A stretch of DNA of 64,000 nt from positions 543,260 to 607,259 of the forward strand of contig CAWFFN010000012.1 in the NCBI GenBank assembly GCA_963815115.1. Direction: 5' to 3'. The translations under genes and the position numbers were made by a program. The notes beneath the pieces were generated by a model. It did no database searches. It worked only from the letters and a program-made list of their open reading frames with translations, and was not told the DNA's origin. This DNA comes from an uncultured delta proteobacterium. GTDB lineage: Bacteria > Desulfobacterota > Binatia > DP-6. Position 1 is the first letter of the stretch; every line of letters starts with the position of its first letter. Below, piece by piece: positions 18,942 through 28,282 of this stretch.

Positions 18942-20814
18942 GCGAGCTCTCCGCGGCGCCAGGCGGGAGTGCGTAGAGGGCGGACCCGCCGGCACGCACC
19001 ACGGGAGCGCCTGCCCGGTCGAGGAACGCCCGCCACAGCCCGGTGACCTGGGCCTCGTAGGGATCGCCGGCCGCCTTCAGGTCGTTCTCATCCACGGCGA
19101 CGTGCGTCGCGCCGAGCCGGCGGGCTGCGTCGCCGAGAGCATCGACCGTGTTCACGTGCCGGTAGTCGACGAGACCCTGCTCGAGGTAGCTCATCAGCAC
19201 GAAGGGCCGCTCGATGAAGTAGGGGTGGGGGATCTTCTCGAACACGAGCACGCGTCCGGTCGCGGGGATGGCCTGGTTGGCCTGGTGCCAGAAGACATAG
19301 CGGTCCGAGTAGCGGGAAAGGAAGACCTCGGGGGCGAGGCGCCCGAAGGCGACGCGCACCTGGTCCGGCCACATGGGGCGGAGCATGCGGCTCACGAGGA
19401 GCAGGTTGCCGCCGACGGTGACCGCCACCACCAGACAGAACAGGCGCCGCCCGCACAGCGCCCGCGCCGCCGGCGTCGCGGCCGCGATCAGGAGCGCGAG
19501 CCCGGGAAGCACGTAGCGCGGGTGCGCCCACGCCCCGACTGCGATGATCGCGACGTAGCCGGCTCCGATCGCGGCCACCGCCAGCGCGGCGCCCCGTCGC
19601 TCCCGGAGCAGGACCAGCGCCGGGAGGAAGGCCAGGCTCCACGGGCTCGTGTCCTGTCCCTGTCGCTTGCCCTTCTCGAACGACTCCGGATGCATGGTGA
19701 GATCCCACGGGAAGCGCGCCACCTCGGTGCCCCGGTAGGGCTTGCCGCCGCGCTGCGAGGCCTCCGTGGTGCGGTACTGGTCGTAGTACAGGTCGAGATA
19801 CGCGGCCGCCTCGGTACTCCAGTTGCGCCCCGCGAACACCCTCTGGCCGAAGGGGTAGAGAGGATTTCCGGTCTCGACCAGGTTGCGTACGTACCAGGGC
19901 GAGAGCAGCACGAGCGCGAGCACGCCGAAGCTCAGCGCGGCGCCGCCGGCGCGTCCGAGCGCGAGGCGGCGGCGGGCGAGGACGGCGAGGACGCCGATGC
20001 CCACCAGCGTCGGCACGAGCAGCGCCATGATCTTGGAGCCGCCCGCGAGACCGGCCATGATGCCCGCGCGTCGCAGGTCGCCCGCCCGCTCGCTGCTTGC
20101 CCAGTCGAGCAACGCCGAGACGGCGAGCGCGGCGTAGAGCACCACGCTCGTGTCGGTTCCTGCGCGGGTCATCTGCGACCAGCACATCCCGGTGGTGAAG
20201 AACACGGCGCCGGCGACGGCTCCCAGCCGATCACCGAGATGGCGGCGAGTGAGCGTCGCCAGGGCGAGCGCAGCCATCACGCCGGCGACGGCGTTCAGCA
20301 GCCGCGCCAGGACGTCGCCGCGCAGCGCGAAGGCGATCGTGAAGAGAAAGTTCTCGAGCCACTGCTGCTGTCCCCAGAAGGTCCAGGGTGTGGGCACGAG
20401 GCCGCCGGCGAGCGCGTAGAGCCGCGGGTAGACGAGATGGTACTTCTCCTGGTCGCCGCCCACCGGCGGCGCGAACCACGTCGGCGCCTCGATGAGCAGC
20501 AGCAGGGCACAAGCGGCCACGAGAACCCACGTCATGAGCCCGCGCGGCGCGCGCACCGCGCGCAGGGCAGCGATGAGAGGCGAGCCGCCCGCGACGAGCG
20601 CGATCGCGCCCGCGATCGCGAGGGGCAGGGGGCGGAGCACTCCGGCGGCGGCGAGCCCGAGCCCGACCAAGCTGGCCAGCCCGAGGCCGGTGGCGAGGCC
20701 CGCCAGCAGATGCTCGTGGGGCTGGTTCGGCAGCGCGCTCGCGGCGCGCAGCGCGAGCAACCCGGCCGCGGCGCTGGCTGCGAGCACCGCGAGCAGCAGG
20801 AGCAGATCGATCAC
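18934..20814 (-). CDS. GT39/PMT-ArnT-like membrane glycosyltransferase with a C-terminal soluble domain
   Basis: Multi-TM N-terminal half with PMT/ArnT-like loop motifs (ALAGGLVPTPWTFWGQQQW; TGNPLYPFG). Overlaps the flippase start by 8 nt. The start is uncertain; a GTG at 20814 was chosen. The long upstream extension is low-complexity. Confidence 0.55.
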   Translation of the reverse strand: MIDLLLLLAVLAASAAAGLLALRAASALPNQPHEHLLAGLATGLGLASLVGLGLAAAGVLRPLPLAIAGAIALVAGGSPLIAALRAVRAPRGLMTWVLVAACALLLLIEAPTWFAPPVGGDQEKYHLVYPRLYALAGGLVPTPWTFWGQQQWLENFLFTIAFALRGDVLARLLNAVAGVMAALALATLTRRHLGDRLGAVAGAVFFTTGMCWSQMTRAGTDTSVVLYAALAVSALLDWASSERAGDLRRAGIMAGLAGGSKIMALLVPTLVGIGVLAVLARRRLALGRAGGAALSFGVLALVLLSPWYVRNLVETGNPLYPFGQRVFAGRNWSTEAAAYLDLYYDQYRTTEASQRGGKPYRGTEVARFPWDLTMHPESFEKGKRQGQDTSPWSLAFLPALVLLRERRGAALAVAAIGAGYVAIIAVGAWAHPRYVLPGLALLIAAATPAARALCGRRLFCLVVAVTVGGNLLLVSRMLRPMWPDQVRVAFGRLAPEVFLSRYSDRYVFWHQANQAIPATGRVLVFEKIPHPYFIERPFVLMSYLEQGLVDYRHVNTVDALGDAARRLGATHVAVDENDLKAAGDPYEAQVTGLWRAFLDRAGAPVVRAGGSALYALPPGAAESSHG

Positions 20815-21019
20815 GACGACCCCCGGAGGTAGCCGAGCCAGTAGATCGCGTAGATCGCCGCGGCCCAGACGGCGAGCACCAGCCGGAGGATCACGGCGGC
20901 GCTCCGGCGAGGGGCTCCTGGGGGCACATGGGCGCGGGAGAATAGCGGGAAGCCTCCCGGATGACGAGAGCAACGAAGCCCGCTTACGTTGTGGCACCTG
21001 CGGGGGTCCAGCGACGCTG

Positions 21020-21049
21020 TTCCCAATCCCGACGGTGCCCGCGTATACT
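21020..21049 (+). promoter_or_regulatory. candidate promoter TTCCCA-N18-TATACT for the mntA-hepT operon (leaderless start)
   Basis: An AT-rich TATACT box sits 6 nt before the GTG at 21056 in a 70% GC background. Confidence 0.3.
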
Positions 21050-21055
21050 GCGCCG

Positions 21056-21463
21056 GTGACCGCCATTGACGACATCCGCGGCGTACTGGATCAGCGCGAC
21101 GATGTCCGCCTCGCGTACGTCTTCGGTTCCGTCGCCCGCGGGCACGCCCGGCCCCGCAGTGACGTCGACGTGGCGGTGCTCTTCGAGGGGGAGGCCACGC
21201 CGGGGGTGCTGGACCATTTCACCGAGGACCTCGAAGACGCTGCGGGCCGACGGGTCGATCTCATCGATCTCGCGACGGCTCCTCCCCTTCTGGCGCATCA
21301 GGTCGTGTCCACGGGCACCTGCATCGTGTGTCGCAACCCGAGGGAGCGTGCGTCCTTCGAGACCAGGACCGTCATCCGCTATCTCGACACTGCGCATCTC
21401 CGAAAGCTCCAGCACAGGTATCTCGCCAAACGCGTACAGGCGCGTCATGACGATCGAGCCTGA
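21056..21463 (+). CDS. mntA: MntA-type nucleotidyltransferase antitoxin (type VII TA)
   Basis: GTG start. AYVFGSVARGHARPRSDVDVAVLF is the GSxxRGxxxxxSDxD minimal nucleotidyltransferase motif. 135 aa. Confidence 0.75.
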   Translation: MTAIDDIRGVLDQRDDVRLAYVFGSVARGHARPRSDVDVAVLFEGEATPGVLDHFTEDLEDAAGRRVDLIDLATAPPLLAHQVVSTGTCIVCRNPRERASFETRTVIRYLDTAHLRKLQHRYLAKRVQARHDDRA

Positions 21464-21875
21464 CGTCGTCAGGCGCAAGCTTCTCGAGATCAACGAGGCC
21501 ACGGGGCACCTGCGTTCGTGGATCCCGGTTACAATCGAGCGGCTCGAGACGGACCAGCAACTCCGCTGGGCCGTCGAGCGGGGCCTGCAGGTCGCCGCCG
21601 AGGCGCTTTTCGACGTCGGGGCGCACATTCTTACAGCCGAATTCCAGGAGGCTGTGGACGAATACCGGCACATTCCGAAGCGACTCCTAGCCCGAGGCGT
21701 CCTGTCGTCGGAGACCGCTGCAAAGCTGAAAGGCCTCGCCGGCTTTCGCAATGTCCTTGTGCACGAGTACGCCGAGATCGACCTGAAGCGCGTTCACGCT
21801 GGGCTCGAGCGACTCGGCGACTTCGACGCGTTCGTCTCGGACGTGGAGCGCTGGCTGCAAGAGAGGACGGGGTGA
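21447..21875 (+). CDS. hepT: HepT-type (DUF86) RNase toxin
   Basis: The RX4HXY motif is RNVLVHEY. 142 aa. Overlaps the mntA 3' end by 17 nt. Confidence 0.8.
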   Translation: MTIEPDVVRRKLLEINEATGHLRSWIPVTIERLETDQQLRWAVERGLQVAAEALFDVGAHILTAEFQEAVDEYRHIPKRLLARGVLSSETAAKLKGLAGFRNVLVHEYAEIDLKRVHAGLERLGDFDAFVSDVERWLQERTG

Positions 21876-22151: not shown

Positions 22152-23018
22152 CTATAGGGAGATATGGAAGCAAGAACACGGGAAATTGTCAGCACCCACA
22201 CAGGATGATCCAATAGGACAATGGCCGCCGCATTGGGGAAACGTACCCCCGCAGACGGGGGGTGGGGCACAGCCGCACGTTCCACCGAAGTTGACGCCCA
22301 CACATCTCATCCCGTTAGGGCAAGTGCCGTTGCAGGCCGGCCTAGATCCCCTACACGTGAAGATCATCGTGGTCGTTGTGGTCGTGGTCGTTGTGGTCGT
22401 GGTCGGGGTCATCGGCGGTGAGCAGGTGCCCTCGGTCACCGGCTTTGCAACCTTGAACTGCTTCGTGCCGTCGTTGGTGACCTGCCCGTCCGCGAAGCGA
22501 ACGTCGTAGGTGTCGCCGCCCTCCCCGACCTCGAGCCGCATGCAGCCGTCCGTGCCGGGGTTGGGTGGCAACACGGCAATCGCCCCGAGCTGGCCGATGG
22601 CGACGGCCTTGATCCGGAAGACCCCGCCACCCGATCTCTTCAGCTGCGCGACTTTGACCGGGCCATTCTCGCCCTTCGAGTCCTTGTACTTGAAGCCCCT
22701 GACGGCATCGCCGCTCCAGAACGGCTGCCCGGTCAGTGCGCTCGTGCCTCCGGGCAAGGTGAACGTCTGCTCGCTCGACGTACCGCCGTTGGCCGTGAGC
22801 GTGAGGGTCGCACCCGAGCCGGCGGGGTCACCCACGATGGTATCGGGGCTCCCCACCTCCCTCGCTTTGACCACGACCTGCCGCCTGGCGGGCGTGCTCG
22901 GATTCTTCACTACGAGCTGGTCGCCGAGGATGGTCTGGTCGGCGGCGCCGGCGGGCCGTGCCGCCGTCACCGTCAGGGCAAGCAGCAGGGCGATGTGGGT
23001 CGTCGGACGATGAAACAT
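22152..23018 (-). CDS. secreted protein with a poly-Thr (T13) linker and a C-terminal Cys-rich CPxGxxC module
   Basis: ATG at 23018 with GAGGAGG as RBS. Signal peptide MFHRPTTHIALLLALTVTAARPAGAA. An (ACC/ACG)13 tract at 22371-22412 precedes CNGTCPNGMRCVG...CGGHCPIGSSCVG. The last ~25 codons have atypically low GC3. Confidence 0.6.
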   Translation of the reverse strand: MFHRPTTHIALLLALTVTAARPAGAADQTILGDQLVVKNPSTPARRQVVVKAREVGSPDTIVGDPAGSGATLTLTANGGTSSEQTFTLPGGTSALTGQPFWSGDAVRGFKYKDSKGENGPVKVAQLKRSGGGVFRIKAVAIGQLGAIAVLPPNPGTDGCMRLEVGEGGDTYDVRFADGQVTNDGTKQFKVAKPVTEGTCSPPMTPTTTTTTTTTTTTMIFTCRGSRPACNGTCPNGMRCVGVNFGGTCGCAPPPVCGGTFPQCGGHCPIGSSCVGADNFPCSCFHISL

Positions 23019-23166
23019 GGCCGGAGTCCTCCTCGCGGTTGGTCGTCGGTGGTGTTCGGATGCCCGAAGCAGACTGCGGCGTCTCACCCTGGGGGCGTCG
23101 AAGGCCGCCGTTTCTGGGCCTCGTCAAGGACCGGTCGGATCAATGAACCTCCTCCGAAAGGGGAAC

Positions 23167-23208
23167 GTGACAACGGTGGGAACATGGGTGTGACGCGGCT
23201 GGGAACAT
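23167..23208 (-). promoter_or_regulatory. ATGTTCCC-N5-TGTCAC motif (two to three copies) upstream of the 22152..23018 gene
   Basis: On the sense (minus) strand: ATGTTCCCaccgtTGTCAC at 23185-23167, ATGTTCCCagccgcgTCACA at 23208-23189, and a further GATGTTCC at 23220-23214. Confidence 0.45.
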
Positions 23209-23668
23209 CACCGGAACATCACCGGGGGCTGAGGATGGCGCTTGTCCGGTCCCGGCCCTGCCGGTCCCCGCCCGGCGCAACCGTGCCCCACGGACTGCGC
23301 TGTCCTACAGCGCGGCCCCGAAGCGGCCGGAGGCGGTCGAGGCGGTGCAGGTCTTGCCGAGGCGCCCCGTCACGTGCTGCCGCAGGTCGCTTGCGCGGGG
23401 AAGATAGAGCTTTCAAGGGCCGATTCGGCCCTCGCGCCTTCTACCAGCCCCCGTCGCTCTGTAACGACGTGTGGGGTGTCCCGTGTTCCTCGGAGCGCTC
23501 CGCCGAGACGACACCCAAGGGACGCCCTAGTGTCGCGTCGAGGACAAGTCCGCTACGAAATGGGCTACGGAACGGTTCATCGCCGCGCGATAGCTTGCGG
23601 GTGCCTCCGCCGCACACCCGGGAGGGGTCTCGCGATCGCCGGGCCGAGTGTCCGTGGCCTGGGCGGTG

Positions 23669-23710
23669 ATGTTCCCTTCCGTGTCACATGCATGTTCCCT
23701 GCGCTGTCAC
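23669..23710 (+). promoter_or_regulatory. tandem ATGTTCCC-N5-TGTCAC motif (x2, 23-nt register) upstream of the haloperoxidase-like gene
   Basis: gATGTTCCCttccgTGTCACatgcATGTTCCCtgcgcTGTCAC, 25 nt before the ATG at 23735. Confidence 0.45.
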
Positions 23711-23734
23711 GGTTCCATGGCGAAGGGAGAAACC

Positions 23735-25075
23735 ATGAACTCAGTGCACGCACGTTTTTCCGCAGTGCTCGTAGGCGTCGTCGGGCTCGCGGCCGTCGTC
23801 GTGACGACGAGCCGCGATGCCGGGGCGGTGCTGCCGCCCGGCAACACGGTGCAGCAGTGGAACAAGATCGCAGAGGACACGGTCGTTGGCTCGGGCGCGT
23901 TCCAGGTCGAAGGCCTGATCTACATGGCCTACGTGTCCGCTGCCGTGTATGACGCGGTGACCTCGATCGAGGGTGGCTACGAACCGTACGCGACCGATAT
24001 CCCGGCGCCGCCAGGGGCATCGACGGAGGCGGCGGTGGTCGAGGCCGCCTACCGAACGCTTCTCAACTACTTCCCGACGCAGGGAGCGACACTCATGCCG
24101 CTCTATGACGGAAGCCCTGGCGCTCATCGCCGACGGGAAGGCGAAGGATGATGGCAAGGCGATCGGGCTCACGGCTGAGGACGGCATCATCGCTCTCCGT
24201 ACGGGCGACGGGCGCCTGACGCCGATCGGCACGACATCGCCGTTCCCGACGCTGCCGCAGGGCCCGGGCGTCTGGCGGTTGACGCCCCCTGGGTTCCTCG
24301 TGCCGCAGGTACCCTGGGCGGGATCGGTCACGCCCTTCGTGCTCGAGCGAGGAGACCAGTTCCTGCCCGGTCCTCCGCCCTCGCTCGGGAGCAAGCGGTG
24401 GGTGAGGGACTTCAACGAGATCAAGACCTACGGTGCGGCGAGCGGTAGCGCTCGGACCGACGAGCAAACTGCGGCCGCGCGGTTCTGGACGGCGAACGTC
24501 ATCAGGCAGTACAGCCGCCTGCTCCGTGACGTCGCCGATGCCCACGCACTTGATCTGCTCCAGACGGCGCGGCTCGCGGCGATGGTCGAGCTCGTCGGCG
24601 CCGATGCGGGAATCTCGGTGATCAACGCCAAGTACCACTACCTCTTCTGGCGGCCGGTGACGGCGATCAACCAGACCGCGGTCACGGCCTGACGGCTTCG
24701 GGCCGGTGCCCGGGTTCGACGACGGGAATCCGGCGACGATCGAAGACACCACGTGGCAGCCGCTCCTCACGACGCCGAACCATCCCGAGTACCCCAGCGC
24801 CCACGGCGTGTTGACCTCGGCGATGGCGGAGGTGTTCCGCAAGTTCCTGGGGACGAGCAAGGTCGATCTCGACATCCACGGCTTCGACGCGGCGGGGCTC
24901 GCCAGGGAACCTGGACGCCGTGCGCCACTTCCACAAGATAGGCGCGCTCCCCAGGGAGATCATCGAGGTGAGGATCTGGGGAGGCCTCCACTACCGCAAC
25001 TCGGATGAAGTGGGCGTCGCGGTCGGCCAGAAGGTTGCCCGCTACGACTTGGGGCACGCTTTCAAGGCGCGTTGA
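23735..25075 (+). pseudogene. vanadium-dependent haloperoxidase / PAP2 acid-phosphatase-like secreted protein, disrupted by at least 3 frameshifts
   Basis: Frame 1: signal peptide MNSVHARFSAVLVGVVGLAAVVV...LNYFPTQGATL. Frame 2: TEALALIADGKAKDDG...AKYHYLFWRPVTAIN. Frame 3: GNPATIEDTTWQPLLTTPNHPEYPSAHG. Frame 4: NLDAVRHFHKIGALPREIIEVRIWGGLHYRNSDEVG...AFKAR*. WRPVTAI, HPEYPSxH and GxHYRxD are the conserved VHPO/PAP2 motifs. Frame switches fall near 24100, 24700 and 24905. Confidence 0.6.
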
Positions 25076-25213
25076 ACAGACGCAGTCGAGATGAAGGGAG
25101 CCGGGCCCGCGGTGGGGCCCGGCTCGCCCTCCGTTGACAGGCCACGTCAGCGATGCAGTGACGGGAGGCTCCGGTGAGCACGTCAGCCCGTGTAGAGAGG
25201 CGTGATCGCGGGT

Positions 25214-25780
25214 TCAACCTGCTCGTCGCGGCAGGAGCGAGCGGGACCACACGCGACTCGATCTCCGGCTGCCGGCGCTCGTCGAGCACCCGGCGCAGTG
25301 GCGTGCGCCGCGCGACGACCTGAGCTTGCTGCTCCGCGCCGTGACGAAGATCTTCGCAGTCCTCCTGATCAGGTCGGCCACACTCCTCAGATCGTTGTTC
25401 TCCATGAACGAGCGGCCGAGCATCAGCACGCGCCTGGTGCGCGCGCGGACGACGAAGAAGCCGCTCTCGGGCACCAGGCCGTTCTAGCCGCGAGACAGCA
25501 GCAGGTACTTGCCGCCCAGGCCGCGATCGGGGCCGGGCAGCCGAAATCGATGACCCAGCGCCATCAGAAATCGTCGATCGTGCCGAGCGTATCGGGCGGC
25601 GTTTCGAGCATCATCGGCCCCTTGCTCAGGTCGATGACGCCGACGAAATAGCGTGTCCGCGTTCGCCGTCAGGAACAGCGACTTGGCATGGATCAGCTCG
25701 GAGAAGATGAGGATATCGCTATCCTTCACGCCGGCGTCGCCGAAACCTTTGTGAACGGCTGCCGCGTTGACGCCCTGCAT
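25214..25780 (-). pseudogene. phospholipase-D-like (HKD) gene fragments in two frames
   Basis: ...IHAKSLFLTANAD... is HxK-like and ...MLGRSFMENNDLRS... resembles GSANxDxRS. The pieces are short, interrupted and in different frames. Confidence 0.3.
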
Positions 25781-25990
25781 AGCTGCTCGGCGCTGGGCGC
25801 GACTGCCCTCGGTGACGTGCTACAGCGCGGCGACGGCGGCAACGACTATCGCGGAGGTGGGGTGCGGTGCTGCCGAGCTGTACACCGAGCGCCTGGTCAC
25901 CACTCAGGGTGACCGACCGATAGCGGCCGTGCTGTTCGGTTCGGCGACCCGACGACCGGTACTCCTCCTTCCTTCTGGGCCCGCGCGACG

Positions 25991-26032
25991 ATGTTCCCTG
26001 TCGCGTTCCATGCATGTTCCCTTGGTTGTCAC
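25991..26032 (+). promoter_or_regulatory. ATGTTCCC ... ATGCATGTTCCC-N5-TGTCAC motif upstream of the 26237 gene
   Basis: gATGTTCCCtgtcgcGTTCCatgcATGTTCCCttggtTGTCAC, same orientation and register as the 23669 copy. Confidence 0.45.
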
Positions 26033-26236
26033 ACCTCCATCTCGGGGCCGGCGGGCCCGTCCAGGATGCACCGACGGCACCCTCGTCCAGAAGTTCGCAT
26101 GCCCAATAGAGGCCGTCGGCCGGCTGTTACGGGAGATCCCCCCAAAAGGAAGGTGCCACATGAATCGGACGCTTTGCAGCCGCCATCCTGCTTCGCTCAG
26201 AATATCCGCATATCCGCCCGCCGGATTTCGGCGGCC

Positions 26237-27069
26237 ATGGTGCCCGGCTCTCTCCGCCGCCTCGCCTGGCTCGTTCCCCTCTGCGCCCTGATCGGCTCCG
26301 CTGGAGCGGCGGGCGCAGGCACCCCCGCGCAGACGTGTGCCGCCGCGAAGCTGAAGGCGGCGGGCACGGAAATCGGGGGCGAGATGGGCTGCTACGGGAA
26401 GGCGAAGCAGGCGGGCGTTGCCGTCGATGGGGGCTGTCTCTCGAGGCAACGGATGAAGGCGGACAGGCGGATCAACTCGCTTGACGGCGCCTGCTCCGGC
26501 ACGGCGGCGGCCATCGACGCGGCCGTCGATAATTGCGTGGCCGCGTTCCTCAGCGACGACCCCGGCAACGGGGTGTGCCCGGCGGCGAGCGCGCAGAAGA
26601 TCGGCAAGGGCGGGAAGGCGGAACTCGCGTGTCAGGCGAAGGAAGTCTTGAGGCCGGGCATGTTCGCGGCGTGTGATGAGAAAGCCGACGGCAAGACGGG
26701 CGCGGGCCTAGAGAACGCGGGCGGCTGCGTGAATCCGACGGCCGTCCTCACGGACATCGACAACTGCAACACCGCCATTGACGCCATCATCGAGCAGACG
26801 ACGACCACCACCACCGAGCGACGACCACCAGCGAGCAGACGACCACCACCGAGCAGACGACCACCACCACCATCCCGTCCCCCTGCACTAGTAGTTCCGG
26901 TGGTAGTCCCTGCGATGCTTCTTGCCCTGGCTCTGTTTGCGCCCCGGAGTCGCCGCCTCCCACGGGGCATGGGCATCGCTGTCCATCGCCCCCCCAGCAC
27001 CTTAGCCCCGGGGATGCCTGCGTAGATGCAGACATCTGCGATTATGTTGAGTGCCAGCTCGGACGGTGA
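26237..27069 (+). CDS. secreted Cys-rich protein with an (EQTTTT)4 linker; frameshifted inside the linker repeat (likely pseudogene or assembly indel)
   Basis: Signal peptide MVPGSLRRLAWLVPLCALIGSAGAAGA, then a K/A-rich paired-Cys helical domain. At about 26819, gagcGacgacc replaces the expected gagcAGacgacc. After the shift the frame reads QTTTSEQTTTTEQTTTTTIPSPCTSSSGGSPCDASCPGSVCAP...CVDADICDYVECQLGR* with a stop at 27067-27069. Confidence 0.55.
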
Positions 27070-28282
27070 CTGTGGCTCGGGCAAGGTCTGCTTGAGGCCC
27101 TTTCCCGTCCCCTTCGGCAGCTGCAATGGTCCAGTTACAACGTGCTGCTCCTCATGCGCATCCTATTCTTGCTTGATTTCCCAGGCGCCCGCGTGCGGCG
27201 GCACGTGCCCGAGCGGACAGGTCTGCGCGGTGACTCCGGTGACTCATGCGTCCTGGCGTCCGACCAACACGTGGACTTCCTCACCACGTGGGGCAGCCCG
27301 GGCAGCGTGTGACGGACAGTTCAGCGGGCAGTTCTGCGGCAGCCCATGGCGTCGCCGCGGATGCGAGCGGGCAGGTCTTCGTGGCAGACTCCGGGAACAT
27401 CCGCATCCAGAAGTGCACTGCATCGTGCCCGTTCGTCACCAAGTGGGGCAGCTGCGGGCAGCGGGGACGGGCAGTTCAACCACCCGGTGGGGGTCGCCGT
27501 GGATGGGAGCGGGAACGTCTTCGTCGCCGACAATTCGGCAACCACCGCATCCAGAAGTTCGACAACACCGGGACGTTCGTGACCACGTGGGGGAGCGCGG
27601 GCAGCGGGGACGGGCAGTTCATTAACCCGGTGGGGGTCGCCGTGGATGGGAGCGGGAACGTCTTCGTCGCCGACTCGCGCAACAACCGCATCCAGAAGTT
27701 CACGAACACCGGCACCTTCCTCACCACGTGGGGCAGCCTGGGCAGCGGGGACGGGCAGTTCCATACCCCGCAGCGGGGTTGCCGTGGATGGGAGCGGGAA
27801 CGTCTTCGTCGCCGACGTCGCCAACAACCGCATCCAGAAGTTCACGAACACCGGCACGTTCTTGACCAAGTGGGGCAGAATGGGCAGCGGGGACGGGCAG
27901 TTCAATGAGCCCCATTGGCCTCGCCGTGGATGGGAACGGGAACGTCTTCGTCGCCGACACGCAACAACCGCATCCAGAAGTTCACGAACACCGGCACGTT
28001 CTTGACCAAGTGGGGCAGCGCGGGCAGCGGGGACGGGCAGTTCGACCAGTCCCGTCGACGTCGCCGTGGATGGGAGCGGGAACGTCTTCGTCGCCGACTC
28101 CGCCAACAACCGCATCCAGGAGTTCGACGAACACCGGTACCTTCCTCGCCACGCGAGGCTGCCCGGGCAGCGGGGAGGGGCAGTTCAATTTCCCGCACGG
28201 CGTCGCCGTCGGATGCTCCAGCGGAAATGTGTTCGTCGCCGACGAGTTCAACAACCGCATCCAGAAGTTCGCGTGTCCATAG
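27026..28282 (+). pseudogene. NHL-repeat (six-bladed beta-propeller) gene with seven tandem 141-144 nt repeats, about one indel per repeat. Probably the continuation of the 26237 gene.
   Basis: The Cys-rich lead-in (DCGSGKVCLRPFPVPFGSCNGPVTTCC...CGGTCPSGQVCAV) follows the previous stop in another frame. The repeats encode TKWGSxGSGDGQFNxPxGVAVDGSGNVFVADSxNNRIQKFTNTGTFLT but are scattered over six overlapping ORFs in three frames. The last repeat ends ...NNRIQKFACP*. Confidence 0.55.
27281..28282 (+). repeat. 7 tandem DNA repeats (about 141-144 nt) encoding NHL blades
   Basis: Blocks such as ggcagcggggacgggcagttc and gtcgccgtggatgggagcgggaacgtcttcgtcgccgac recur at approximately 27433, 27577, 27721, 27862, 28001 and 28144. 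Confidence 0.75.

Follow-up and report, generated by a model that had tools for sequence, protein, structure and literature searches.

The consensus of sigma54 promoters is TGGCAC-N5-TTGC, with its two boxes at -24 and -12. Promoters recognized by ECF41 sigma factors carry the signature TGTCACA-N16(+/-1)-CGTC, for which TGTC and TGTT are listed as -10 variants, and are followed by a short leader of 22-23 nt (Wecke et al. 2012, PMC3426412). Reported control by ECF41 sigmas is confined to adjacent COE genes, which encode a carboxymuconolactone decarboxylase, oxidoreductase or epimerase and lie next to the sigma factor gene (PMC3426412). In S. meliloti the ECF41 motif ends approximately 9 nt before the mapped start site (PMC3616915). 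The Pm operator bound by XylS consists of two homologous 15-bp direct repeats, each arranged as TGCA (box A)-N6-GGTA (box B), and the proximal site is filled first (PMC5481539). PHO boxes are built from 11-nt direct repeat units, such as CTGTCAT in E. coli and GTTCACC in S. coelicolor (PMC4415409).

We identified a tandem module of approximately 45 nt (42-46 nt), consisting of ATGTTCCC-N5-TGTCAC twice, upstream of secreted-protein genes in a 64-kb stretch of Binatia DNA (the window). Binatia are abundant uncultivated soil bacteria, and we know of no regulatory element described in them. With up to two mismatches allowed, the 19-bp unit ATGTTCCCNNNNNTGTCAC has five matches in the window, compared with 0.18 expected from 100 shuffles, none of which reached five. 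The matches are at 23167-23185 and 23190-23208 on the minus strand and at 23669-23687, 23692-23710 and 26014-26032 on the plus strand, and a sixth unit with a variant hexamer (ATGTTCCCtgtcgCGTTCC) is found at 25991-26009. The units form three tandem pairs (R1, R2 and R3) with a register of exactly 23 nt in all three, and six of the eight copies of ATGTTCCC in the window fall within them. A repeat search independently recovers the module copies as 56-63-nt repeats (D1, I1 and I2) of 73-78% identity. The preliminary description had reported an element repeated in a 23-nt register on the sense strand of each downstream gene, and this is seen at all three sites; the element is also non-random and promoter-proximal, in support of that description. 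A position weight matrix scan, which it had proposed for finding further copies, gave no weaker sites in the window or in the other loci of the related MAG.

R1 (23167-23219, minus strand) is located upstream of gene 1 (22152-23018, minus strand), 148 nt from the ATG at 23018. Its proximal unit has the octamer at 23178-23185 and the hexamer TGTCAC at 23167-23172, its distal unit has the octamer at 23201-23208 and the hexamer CGTCAC at 23190-23195, and an additional partial octamer (ATGTTCC) lies at 23213-23219, all on the minus strand. R2 (23669-23710, plus strand) precedes gene 2 (23735-25075, plus strand), with the distal octamer and hexamer at 23669-23676 and 23682-23687, the proximal pair at 23692-23699 and 23705-23710, and TGTCAC as both hexamers. 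The gap between R2 and the ATG at 23735 is only 24 nt and contains the ribosome-binding site AAGGGAG. R3 (25991-26032, plus strand) lies upstream of gene 3 (26161-27025, plus strand). The distal unit of R3 combines an octamer at 25991-25998 with the variant hexamer CGTTCC at 26004-26009, and the proximal unit combines an octamer at 26014-26021 with TGTCAC at 26027-26032.

In the window, the gene downstream of each tandem pair encodes a signal peptide. In gene 1 the signal peptide is accompanied by a conserved N-terminal domain of approximately 200 amino acids, a poly-Thr linker and a Cys-rich C-terminus. We found 339 homologues of gene 1, and the N-terminal domain is elsewhere fused to esterase, NHL and Lcl_C domains; a look-up of the window's own gene-1 protein gave no record. 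The product of gene 3 is also secreted, is Cys-rich and carries a Thr linker. The earlier assignment of all three genes to one Cys-rich or Thr-linker family holds for genes 1 and 3, but gene 2 encodes a secreted vanadium-haloperoxidase-like protein (VCPO_2nd; VCPO/PAP2-type) that is spread over three frames in the window.

The 64 kb of the window genome were compared with 7-17-kb pieces of close relatives. The module is also present in four contigs outside the window's assembly (L002, L062, L064 and, as a single unit, L001). The module-bearing relatives are ERZ25039552 contig_25344, ERZ25039520 contig_18079 and contig_11190 (MFD03975.bin.1.282), and ERZ27241277 k141_490821. All module-bearing contigs belong to one narrow Candidatus Binatia clade. 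Because the module is found in these other assemblies, among them the Illumina assembly L064, it is not a sequencing artefact. The R1 orthologue in L062 (5599-5640) differs only by one base in a spacer and by 2 nt inserted behind the hexamer. R2 has orthologues in L002 (6298-6339) and L062 (5934-5975), and R3 has one in L062 (8251-8292). Near-identical R3 paralogues, designated R4, precede gene-1-type genes in L002 (9883-9924) and L062 (13723-13764).

The R3 and R4 copies are recent duplicates of one promoter-plus-leader segment of approximately 85 nt. The co-duplicated leader (acctCCATCTCGGGGCCGGCGGGCCCGTCC...) occupies 26033-26065 on the plus strand, where homology to L002 and L001 stops. 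The suggestion of a small repeat carried along with duplicated gene units is thus also partly right. The gene order of the island varies among the window, L002, L062 and L064; the breakpoints adjoin modules, and IS3 and IS630 elements are located nearby. All copies of the module look to be descended from one ancestral segment. Truly independent instances are few, approximately four, because a single rearranging island contains all known copies and R3 and R4 arose by recent duplication.

Conservation was counted by column across four diverged site families. Invariant columns make up 15 of 16 in the octamers, 8 of 12 in the hexamers, 4 of 14 in the spacers and 5 of 16 downstream of the module. 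Among close orthologues there are nine substitutions in the module, none of them within the octamers (p ~0.013). Specific positions of the module are thus under selection. The proximal hexamer is nGTCAC, with GTC invariant in all sites. One octamer is always found 5 nt upstream of the proximal hexamer, and one is usually found 5 nt upstream of the distal hexamer. The internal spacings (5/4/5) are free of indels in all ten tandem sites, and indels do occur directly after the module. In the window and its relatives, 11 of 11 module sites are in sense orientation to the downstream gene. Extra octamers at irregular spacing in R1 (+11 nt) and L064 (+19 nt) are consistent with a DNA-binding regulator. 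Given that the module is shared by different genes, the natural reading is that a common sequence-specific reader would co-regulate the genes of the island.

The module is absent upstream of 50 gene-1 homologue loci from other Binatia. The homologues in these organisms have clear sigmaA promoters (TTGAC(A/C)-N17-TACGGT or TGGTAGTCT), and the pattern at homologous loci is TTGACA-N17-TAnnnT. A consensus scan for sigmaA promoters (TTGACA-like -35, TAnnnT -10, spacing of 16-18 nt) found none in 22900-26400, a relaxed scan likewise found none, and no TAnnnT -10 is present within or after the module. The module has taken the place of the sigmaA promoters used by other Binatia. A VCPO orthologue (L063, 75% amino acid identity) is without the module in the 77 nt of available upstream sequence, although its ribosome-binding-site region is homologous. 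Despite searches of public sequence, we identified no occurrence outside the island of one narrow clade. The exact tandem pattern (21 specified bases) had no match in public genome contigs or in metagenome contigs, five matches of a single unit with the CCAT box in metagenome contigs were all in unrelated contigs (43-57% G+C) and were judged to be chance, and a literature search for the octamer returned only primers.

The 24-nt gap of R2, seen in the window, L002 and L062, occurs independently in L064, where it also includes a ribosome-binding site. So short a distance to the ATG argues that the module is a core promoter rather than an upstream activator site, and would place the start site within approximately 12 nt of the proximal hexamer. 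The first interpretation, a dedicated factor that co-regulates these genes, is partly supported. We tentatively propose that the module is the core promoter (approximately -50 to -7) of a small, clade-specific group of secreted-protein genes, independent of the housekeeping sigma factor, a proposal whose chances fall a little short of even. The best reading is that it is recognized by an ECF-like sigma factor, by a direct-repeat regulator acting on the octamers, or by both, and its most likely role is that of a dedicated on/off switch.

The preliminary description had found no match to sigma70, sigma54 or ECF spacing, which is incorrect for ECF spacing. The hexamers are exactly 17 nt apart, and R1 and R2 read (C/T)GTCACA-N16-TGTC (TGTCACA-N16-TGTC in R2), which is the ECF41 signature; L064 reads CGTTACA-N16-CGTC. 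The ECF41 -35 TGTCACA is matched at 7 of 7 positions in R2 (window, L002 and L062), 6 of 7 in R1, 5 of 7 in L064, and 4 of 7 in R3, R4 and L001. The spacer is 16 nt in all tandem sites, and the -10 is TGTC except in L064 (CGTC) and L001 (AGTC). The short leader implied by the 24-nt gap is a further likeness, and the gap is also compatible with the approximately 9 nt between motif and start site in S. meliloti. In the proposed core promoter, RNA polymerase with an ECF-type alternative sigma would take the proximal hexamer (nGTCAC) as the -10, and the candidate -35 for the same sigma, (C/T)GTYMCA, would consist of the distal hexamer and the A that follows it, 16 nt upstream. The start of transcription would fall close to the conserved CCAT, approximately 7-10 nt past the proximal hexamer. 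The invariant ATGTTCC octamers would be bound by a dedicated DNA-binding co-regulator or would act as an extended determinant of specificity; the irregular extra octamers and the lone proximal octamer of L001 suggest a separate octamer-binding factor. The start site, the assignment of proteins to boxes and the sign of the regulation, whether activation or repression, are inferred.

There are also observations against an ECF sigma factor. In ECF promoters conservation is normally highest in the -35, whereas here the candidate -35 is conserved less than any other part and is degenerate in R3, R4 and L001 (CGTTCCA, CGCTACA, CATCAGA). The 17-nt spacing of the hexamers may be coincidental, as the distal and proximal units are copies in a 23-nt tandem repeat. 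In addition, the dominant ATGTTCC, which is found in the spacer and upstream of the -35, is outside the ECF41 signature, the downstream genes encode secreted Thr-linker/Cys-rich and VCPO-like proteins rather than COE proteins, and no ECF41 sigma gene adjoins the module. No gene for a sigma factor, anti-sigma factor or DNA-binding regulator was identified by Pfam among the approximately 40 ORFs of the window, or in the gene tables of related loci.

A less likely explanation, though one to be taken seriously, is that the module is purely a transcription-factor array. The 19-bp unit (ATGTTCCC, 5 bp, TGTCAC) would be bound by a single AraC/XylS-like protomer through two DNA-reading heads, or by a head-to-tail pair of PhoB/PhoP-like winged-helix response regulators. 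A dimer assembled on two units would then either activate or block a very weak sigmaA promoter. In operators the recognition element is usually the best conserved, as the octamer is here, and the rigid spacing and additional upstream octamers also fit. The architecture mirrors the XylS operator in that two homologous, asymmetric, bipartite tandem repeats lie next to or overlap the promoter, with the proximal repeat primary, since L001 keeps only that unit. However, the period is 23 nt, compared with 21-22 nt for such an array and approximately 21 nt for XylS/AraC, and boxes of 8 and 6 bp are set 5 bp apart. AraC/XylS and PhoB activators act at or upstream of the -35, and an AraC/XylS operator needs a -10 and approximately 30 nt to the start. 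The module instead reaches the -10 region, whereas the XylS operator just overlaps the -35, and R2 and L064 leave 24 nt that include the ribosome-binding site. The array also lacks a TAnnnT -10 for sigmaA, and neither an AraC-type gene nor another regulator gene is near the module.

The half-sites of this putative array resemble PHO-box units. The module can be written as four direct repeats (TGTTCC / TGTCAC) phased at 12-11-12 nt, and each half-site type differs from a known PHO repeat core by no more than 1-2 bases. In addition, one of the targets is an enzyme of the PAP2/VCPO type, to which phosphatases also belong. However, two conserved unit types alternate strictly, with an average period of 11.5 nt, unlike homodimer repeats, which converge on one consensus. 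The module also overlaps the -10 instead of replacing the -35, and no pst or pho genes occur in the window.

It is improbable that the single 19-bp unit (ATGTTCC-N6-GTC), as found in L001, is a self-sufficient compact promoter of an undescribed, -24/-12-like class recognized by a novel or strongly diverged Binatia sigma; in this reading the tandem copy would provide an overlapping second promoter, and the conserved 155 nt preceding R2 would serve as an enhancer-type site. The unit is compact and bipartite with the same TG-to-TG distance (12 nt) as sigma54 promoters, and a lone unit with a start approximately 12 nt downstream would suffice, as in L001. However, the aligned positions are TGT...TGT instead of TGG...TGC, so that GT and GT replace the near-invariant GG of the -24 and GC of the -12, and a sigma54 reading does not explain the tandem duplication. 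The region upstream of R2 (23513-23668, plus strand) is indeed conserved, being approximately 97% identical to L002 compared with 88% in the 1.7-kb gene alignment, and may belong to the same control region as R2.

We also consider it very doubtful that the module functions in a transcribed 5' leader, with the pyrimidine run UGUUCCCU pairing to the ribosome-binding site AGGGAG(G) and controlling translation, or that a protein bound to its DNA acts as a roadblock to transcription from an unseen promoter further upstream. In favour of the leader, RNAalifold predicts pairing between the proximal UGUUCCCU and the Shine-Dalgarno sequence AGGGAGGA in four of four gene-1-type leaders. The module is also invariably in sense orientation, and the real promoter could be contained in the conserved 155 nt that precede R2. 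However, folding energies are no better than those of shuffled controls (z = -0.4 to +2.1), both pairing partners are invariant and show no covariation, and there is no relevant Rfam match at E<=5. The distance from the module to the ribosome-binding site ranges from 10 to approximately 130 nt, a sigmaA-type promoter was looked for upstream and not found, and the ATG, the hexamers and the rigid 23-nt register are left unexplained.

Least probable is that the copies are passive or recombination repeats (remnants of mobile-element ends, or cassette-shuffling hot spots in an island rich in IS elements) that play no part in transcription: R1 and R2 are 63-nt inverted arms 450 nt apart, the island is rearranged with breakpoints next to modules and IS3/IS630 nearby, R3 and R4 are recent duplicates and no copy was found outside the island, but solo copies exist (R3, R4, L001 and L064), target-site duplications are absent, all 11 sites are sense to the downstream gene, conservation is position-specific while the spacers drift, start codons that have ribosome-binding sites follow the module after 24 nt, and the module-bearing genes have no other recognisable promoter.

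Three further candidates were rejected. The R1/R2 arms are not a MITE or invertible segment, given the solo copies, the lack of target duplications and an interior that varies from 294 to 450 nt. An antisense ECF reading, with GGGAAC as the -35 of the other strand, has no consistent -10 and no gene in that direction in L001. A sigmaA reading with CACGGT as the -10 fails in R3, R4 and L064.

The module is ordinary in kind, a lineage-specific promoter or operator motif, and what is new is the lineage-specific version. A narrow Binatia clade appears to have exchanged the housekeeping promoters of secreted proteins for a portable candidate promoter cassette, copied before different genes (Thr-linker/Cys-rich and haloperoxidase/phosphatase-like) in an IS-rich island. 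The module provides a testable handle on one Binatia regulon, and the reader protein, if found, would connect a sensor to these secreted proteins.

The start of gene 3, previously placed at 26237, is most likely the ATG at 26161, a codon that is served by a ribosome-binding site and shares the reading frame of the signal peptide in L062. In the window the gene is frame-shifted through an 8-nt duplication (26207-26222), and the signal peptide is readable from 26237.

The unit ATGTTCCC-N5-TGTCAC, consisting of an octamer, a spacer and a hexamer, occurs five times in the 64-kb window with at most two mismatches, compared with 0.18 matches expected from dinucleotide-preserving shuffles. A variant unit at 25991–26009 brings the total to three tandem pairs in a register of exactly 23 nt, confirming the occurrence claimed in the preliminary description. 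These modules are found at 23167–23208 on the minus strand (R1, with an additional partial octamer at 23213–23219) and at 23669–23710 (R2) and 25991–26032 (R3, including the variant unit) on the plus strand. All three are on the sense strand relative to a downstream signal-peptide gene. Six of the eight copies of ATGTTCCC in the window fall within R1, R2 and R3, and a scan with a position weight matrix made from the units identified no weaker copies in the window. In a repeat search the module copies are 73–78% identical across 56–63 nt, and the three regions show no alignment beyond a block of ~60 nt.

The signal peptides of the three genes were judged by eye from translated N-termini rather than with a predictor. 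In the product of gene 1 (22152–23018, minus strand), a poly-Thr linker connects a conserved N-terminal domain of ~200 amino acids to a Cys-rich tail. The product of gene 3 (plus strand) is likewise Cys-rich and has a Thr linker; the gene is frame-broken in the window because of an 8-nt tandem duplication (ATATCCGC ATATCCGC, 26207–26222) that is missing in the related contig L062. With the duplication removed, the signal peptide at 26237 shares the reading frame of the ATG at 26161, to which the ribosome-binding site AAAAGGAAGG belongs, and comparison with this relative points to ATG 26161 as the true start. Gene 2 (23735–25075, plus strand) is vanadium-haloperoxidase-like (Pfam VCPO_2nd), and its homologues carry that name. 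It is spread over three frames, with single-base indels at 24690 and 24894 and a break near 24100–24150 that is also present in L062. A homologue in L063 (Logan assembly of SRR31638532) is frame-broken within the same short region, and in contig L064 homology begins only at window position 24012 and is preceded by a different N-terminus that lies in another frame. The breaks could reflect pseudogenisation, a recombination hot spot or systematic error.

On the evidence of its gene-1 homologues, the window belongs to Candidatus Binatia. Among relatives, there are two tandem sites in L002 (ERZ25039552) and four in L062 (ERZ25039520 contig_18079, ~97% identical), the latter corresponding to R1, R2, R3 and a further copy, R4. 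In L064 (ERZ27241277, ~85% identical), a MEGAHIT-style k141 contig taken to be an Illumina assembly, ATGTTCCC-N11-ATGTTCCCcgccgCGTTACaggcATGTTCCAtccatCGTCAC is followed by 24 nt to an ATG with a GGAGG ribosome-binding site. L001 (MAG MFD03975.bin.1.282), whose gene-1 protein is ~60% identical, has the proximal unit only, atgcATGTTCCCtgtatAGTCAG, and the leader behind this unit is homologous to the R4 leader of L002 and L062. Upstream regions of 50 gene-1 homologues in other Binatia genomes lack the module, as does that of the 75%-identical VCPO orthologue in L063, and the exact tandem pattern has no match in public genome and metagenome contig collections. Given its presence in relatives and absence elsewhere, the module is real, not an assembly artefact, and as far as can be seen is confined to a single narrow clade and a single IS-rich island undergoing rearrangement. 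A looser single-unit pattern matched only low-GC contigs, which we judged to be chance.

In a comparison of four diverged site families (R1, R2, R3 and L064), 15 of 16 octamer columns are invariant, as are 8 of 12 in the hexamers, 4 of 14 in the spacers and 5 of the 16 nt downstream. Nine substitutions separate the modules of close orthologues, and all of them spare the octamers (p about 0.013). Inside the module, spacings of 5, 4 and 5 nt are constant, and indels occur directly 3' of the proximal hexamer. This pattern is the signature of sequence-specific protein recognition. R1, R4 of L002 and L062, and the L001 site are orthologous gene-1 promoters, and R3 and R4 are clearly recent copies of one ~85-nt promoter-plus-leader segment. 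The alternative that the sites are simply a duplicated segment thus holds for R3 and R4, but position-specific conservation goes beyond what recent duplication alone would leave.

In R2 (in three genomes) and, independently, in L064, the ATG follows the proximal hexamer after a gap of only 24 nt. This gap also holds a good ribosome-binding site, and the start site should therefore lie within ~12 nt of the hexamer. With the start site so placed, the module must presumably be a core promoter, covering roughly −50 to −7. Neither a consensus nor a relaxed scan identified a TTGACA/TAnnnT promoter at the module. Homologous genes in other Binatia have textbook TTGAC(A/C)-N17-TACGGT or TGGTAGTCT promoters, and this clade has replaced such housekeeping promoters with the module. 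Clear promoters of these two forms, the latter an extended −10, are found in the ~130 nt shown upstream of gene-1 homologues in ten loci (L007, L010, L013, L015, L019, L023, L024, L027, L040 and L041), and can serve as an initial consensus for sigmaA promoters of Binatia.

The hexamers of the module are exactly 17 nt apart, giving TGTCACA-N16-TGTC in R2, CGTCACA-N16-TGTC in R1 and CGTTACA-N16-CGTC in L064. The signature of ECF41 alternative sigma factors is TGTCACA-N16±1-CGTC, in which TGTC or TGTT can stand for CGTC and the leader is 22–23 nt long (PMC3426412), and in S. meliloti a start site was mapped 9 nt past the end of the ECF41 motif (PMC3616915). The three readings conform to this signature, and the earlier statement that the motif fits no sigma spacing was therefore wrong. 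In addition, every proximal hexamer contains an unchanged GTC, as would be expected of an ECF-type −10. However, the octamer that dominates the module has no counterpart in the ECF41 signature, conservation is lowest in the putative −35, and the 17-nt spacing is an automatic outcome of the 23-nt repeat, all of which speak against a simple ECF reading. Additional octamers at irregular distances (+11 nt in R1, +19 nt in L064) and the single octamer of L001 suggest a separate octamer-binding factor. The best reading, in which we place slightly less than even confidence, is that the module would act as a sigmaA-independent, ECF-like promoter whose embedded octamers would be sites for a dedicated regulator. 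In kind the module is a lineage-specific promoter/operator motif. The dedicated co-regulating signal proposed in the preliminary description is retained, but an upstream activator site without sigma-like spacing does not agree with the core-promoter position and ECF41 geometry. No sigma-factor or DNA-binding-regulator genes were found in the window or related loci.

The main rival, a pure regulator array, is somewhat unlikely. Like the XylS operator (PMC5481539), the module has paired bipartite direct repeats with a primary proximal unit, and its TGTTCC/TGTCAC phasing of 12-11-12 nt recalls the PHO box, although the latter has 11-nt units (GTTCACC/CTGTCAT; PMC4415409). The architecture fits either version, but a position so near the ATG does not, and there is no −10. 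Action of the module at the RNA level is not supported and is very improbable, as its leaders fold no better than shuffles and show neither covariation nor an Rfam match. A passive or recombination repeat, slightly less probable still, leaves the constant sense orientation, position-specific conservation and 24-nt placement unexplained.

Island gene order is different in each relative. IS3-family elements and an IS630-type transposase adjoin modules in L062 (4316–5545, 12533–13600) and L002 (4351–5563); the IS3-family elements carry the ALIL frameshift pseudoknot (Rfam RF01497), and in L062 one abuts R1 at the place held by gene 1 in the window. A nucleotidyltransferase (MNT)/HepT toxin-antitoxin pair at the island border (20492–21875) is 86% identical to that of L064 (4508–5525). 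An NHL-repeat gene (27246–28282) is scattered across several reading frames, and its DNA is internally repeated with ~110–140 nt periodicity (many offset BLAST matches to L002). The 155 nt upstream of R2 (23513–23668) are ~97% identical to L002, compared with only 88% for the adjacent gene, and hold a direct repeat, GCTACGAAA-N3-GCTACGGAA (about 23552–23572); the 155-nt stretch could be a further control region. Directly after R1 (23113–23138, minus strand) is TTTCGGAGG, which in L064 is a ribosome-binding site 9 nt ahead of the ATG. The copy in the window precedes TTG and a short ORF of 22 codons, and might represent either an upstream ORF or what is left of a former gene start.

Among other Binatia, gene-1 homologues have a common leader of ~100 nt (L011 1195–1300, L013 166–271, L016 5841–5946, L017 5075–5180, L026 5847–5952 and L036 451–556) with the conserved blocks GGGGGGA and GGGAGCRCGGGCGG. 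This leader has no match in Rfam. Its hairpin, GTCGC...GGCGAC, shows a few compensatory changes, and the leader may be a cis-regulatory RNA.
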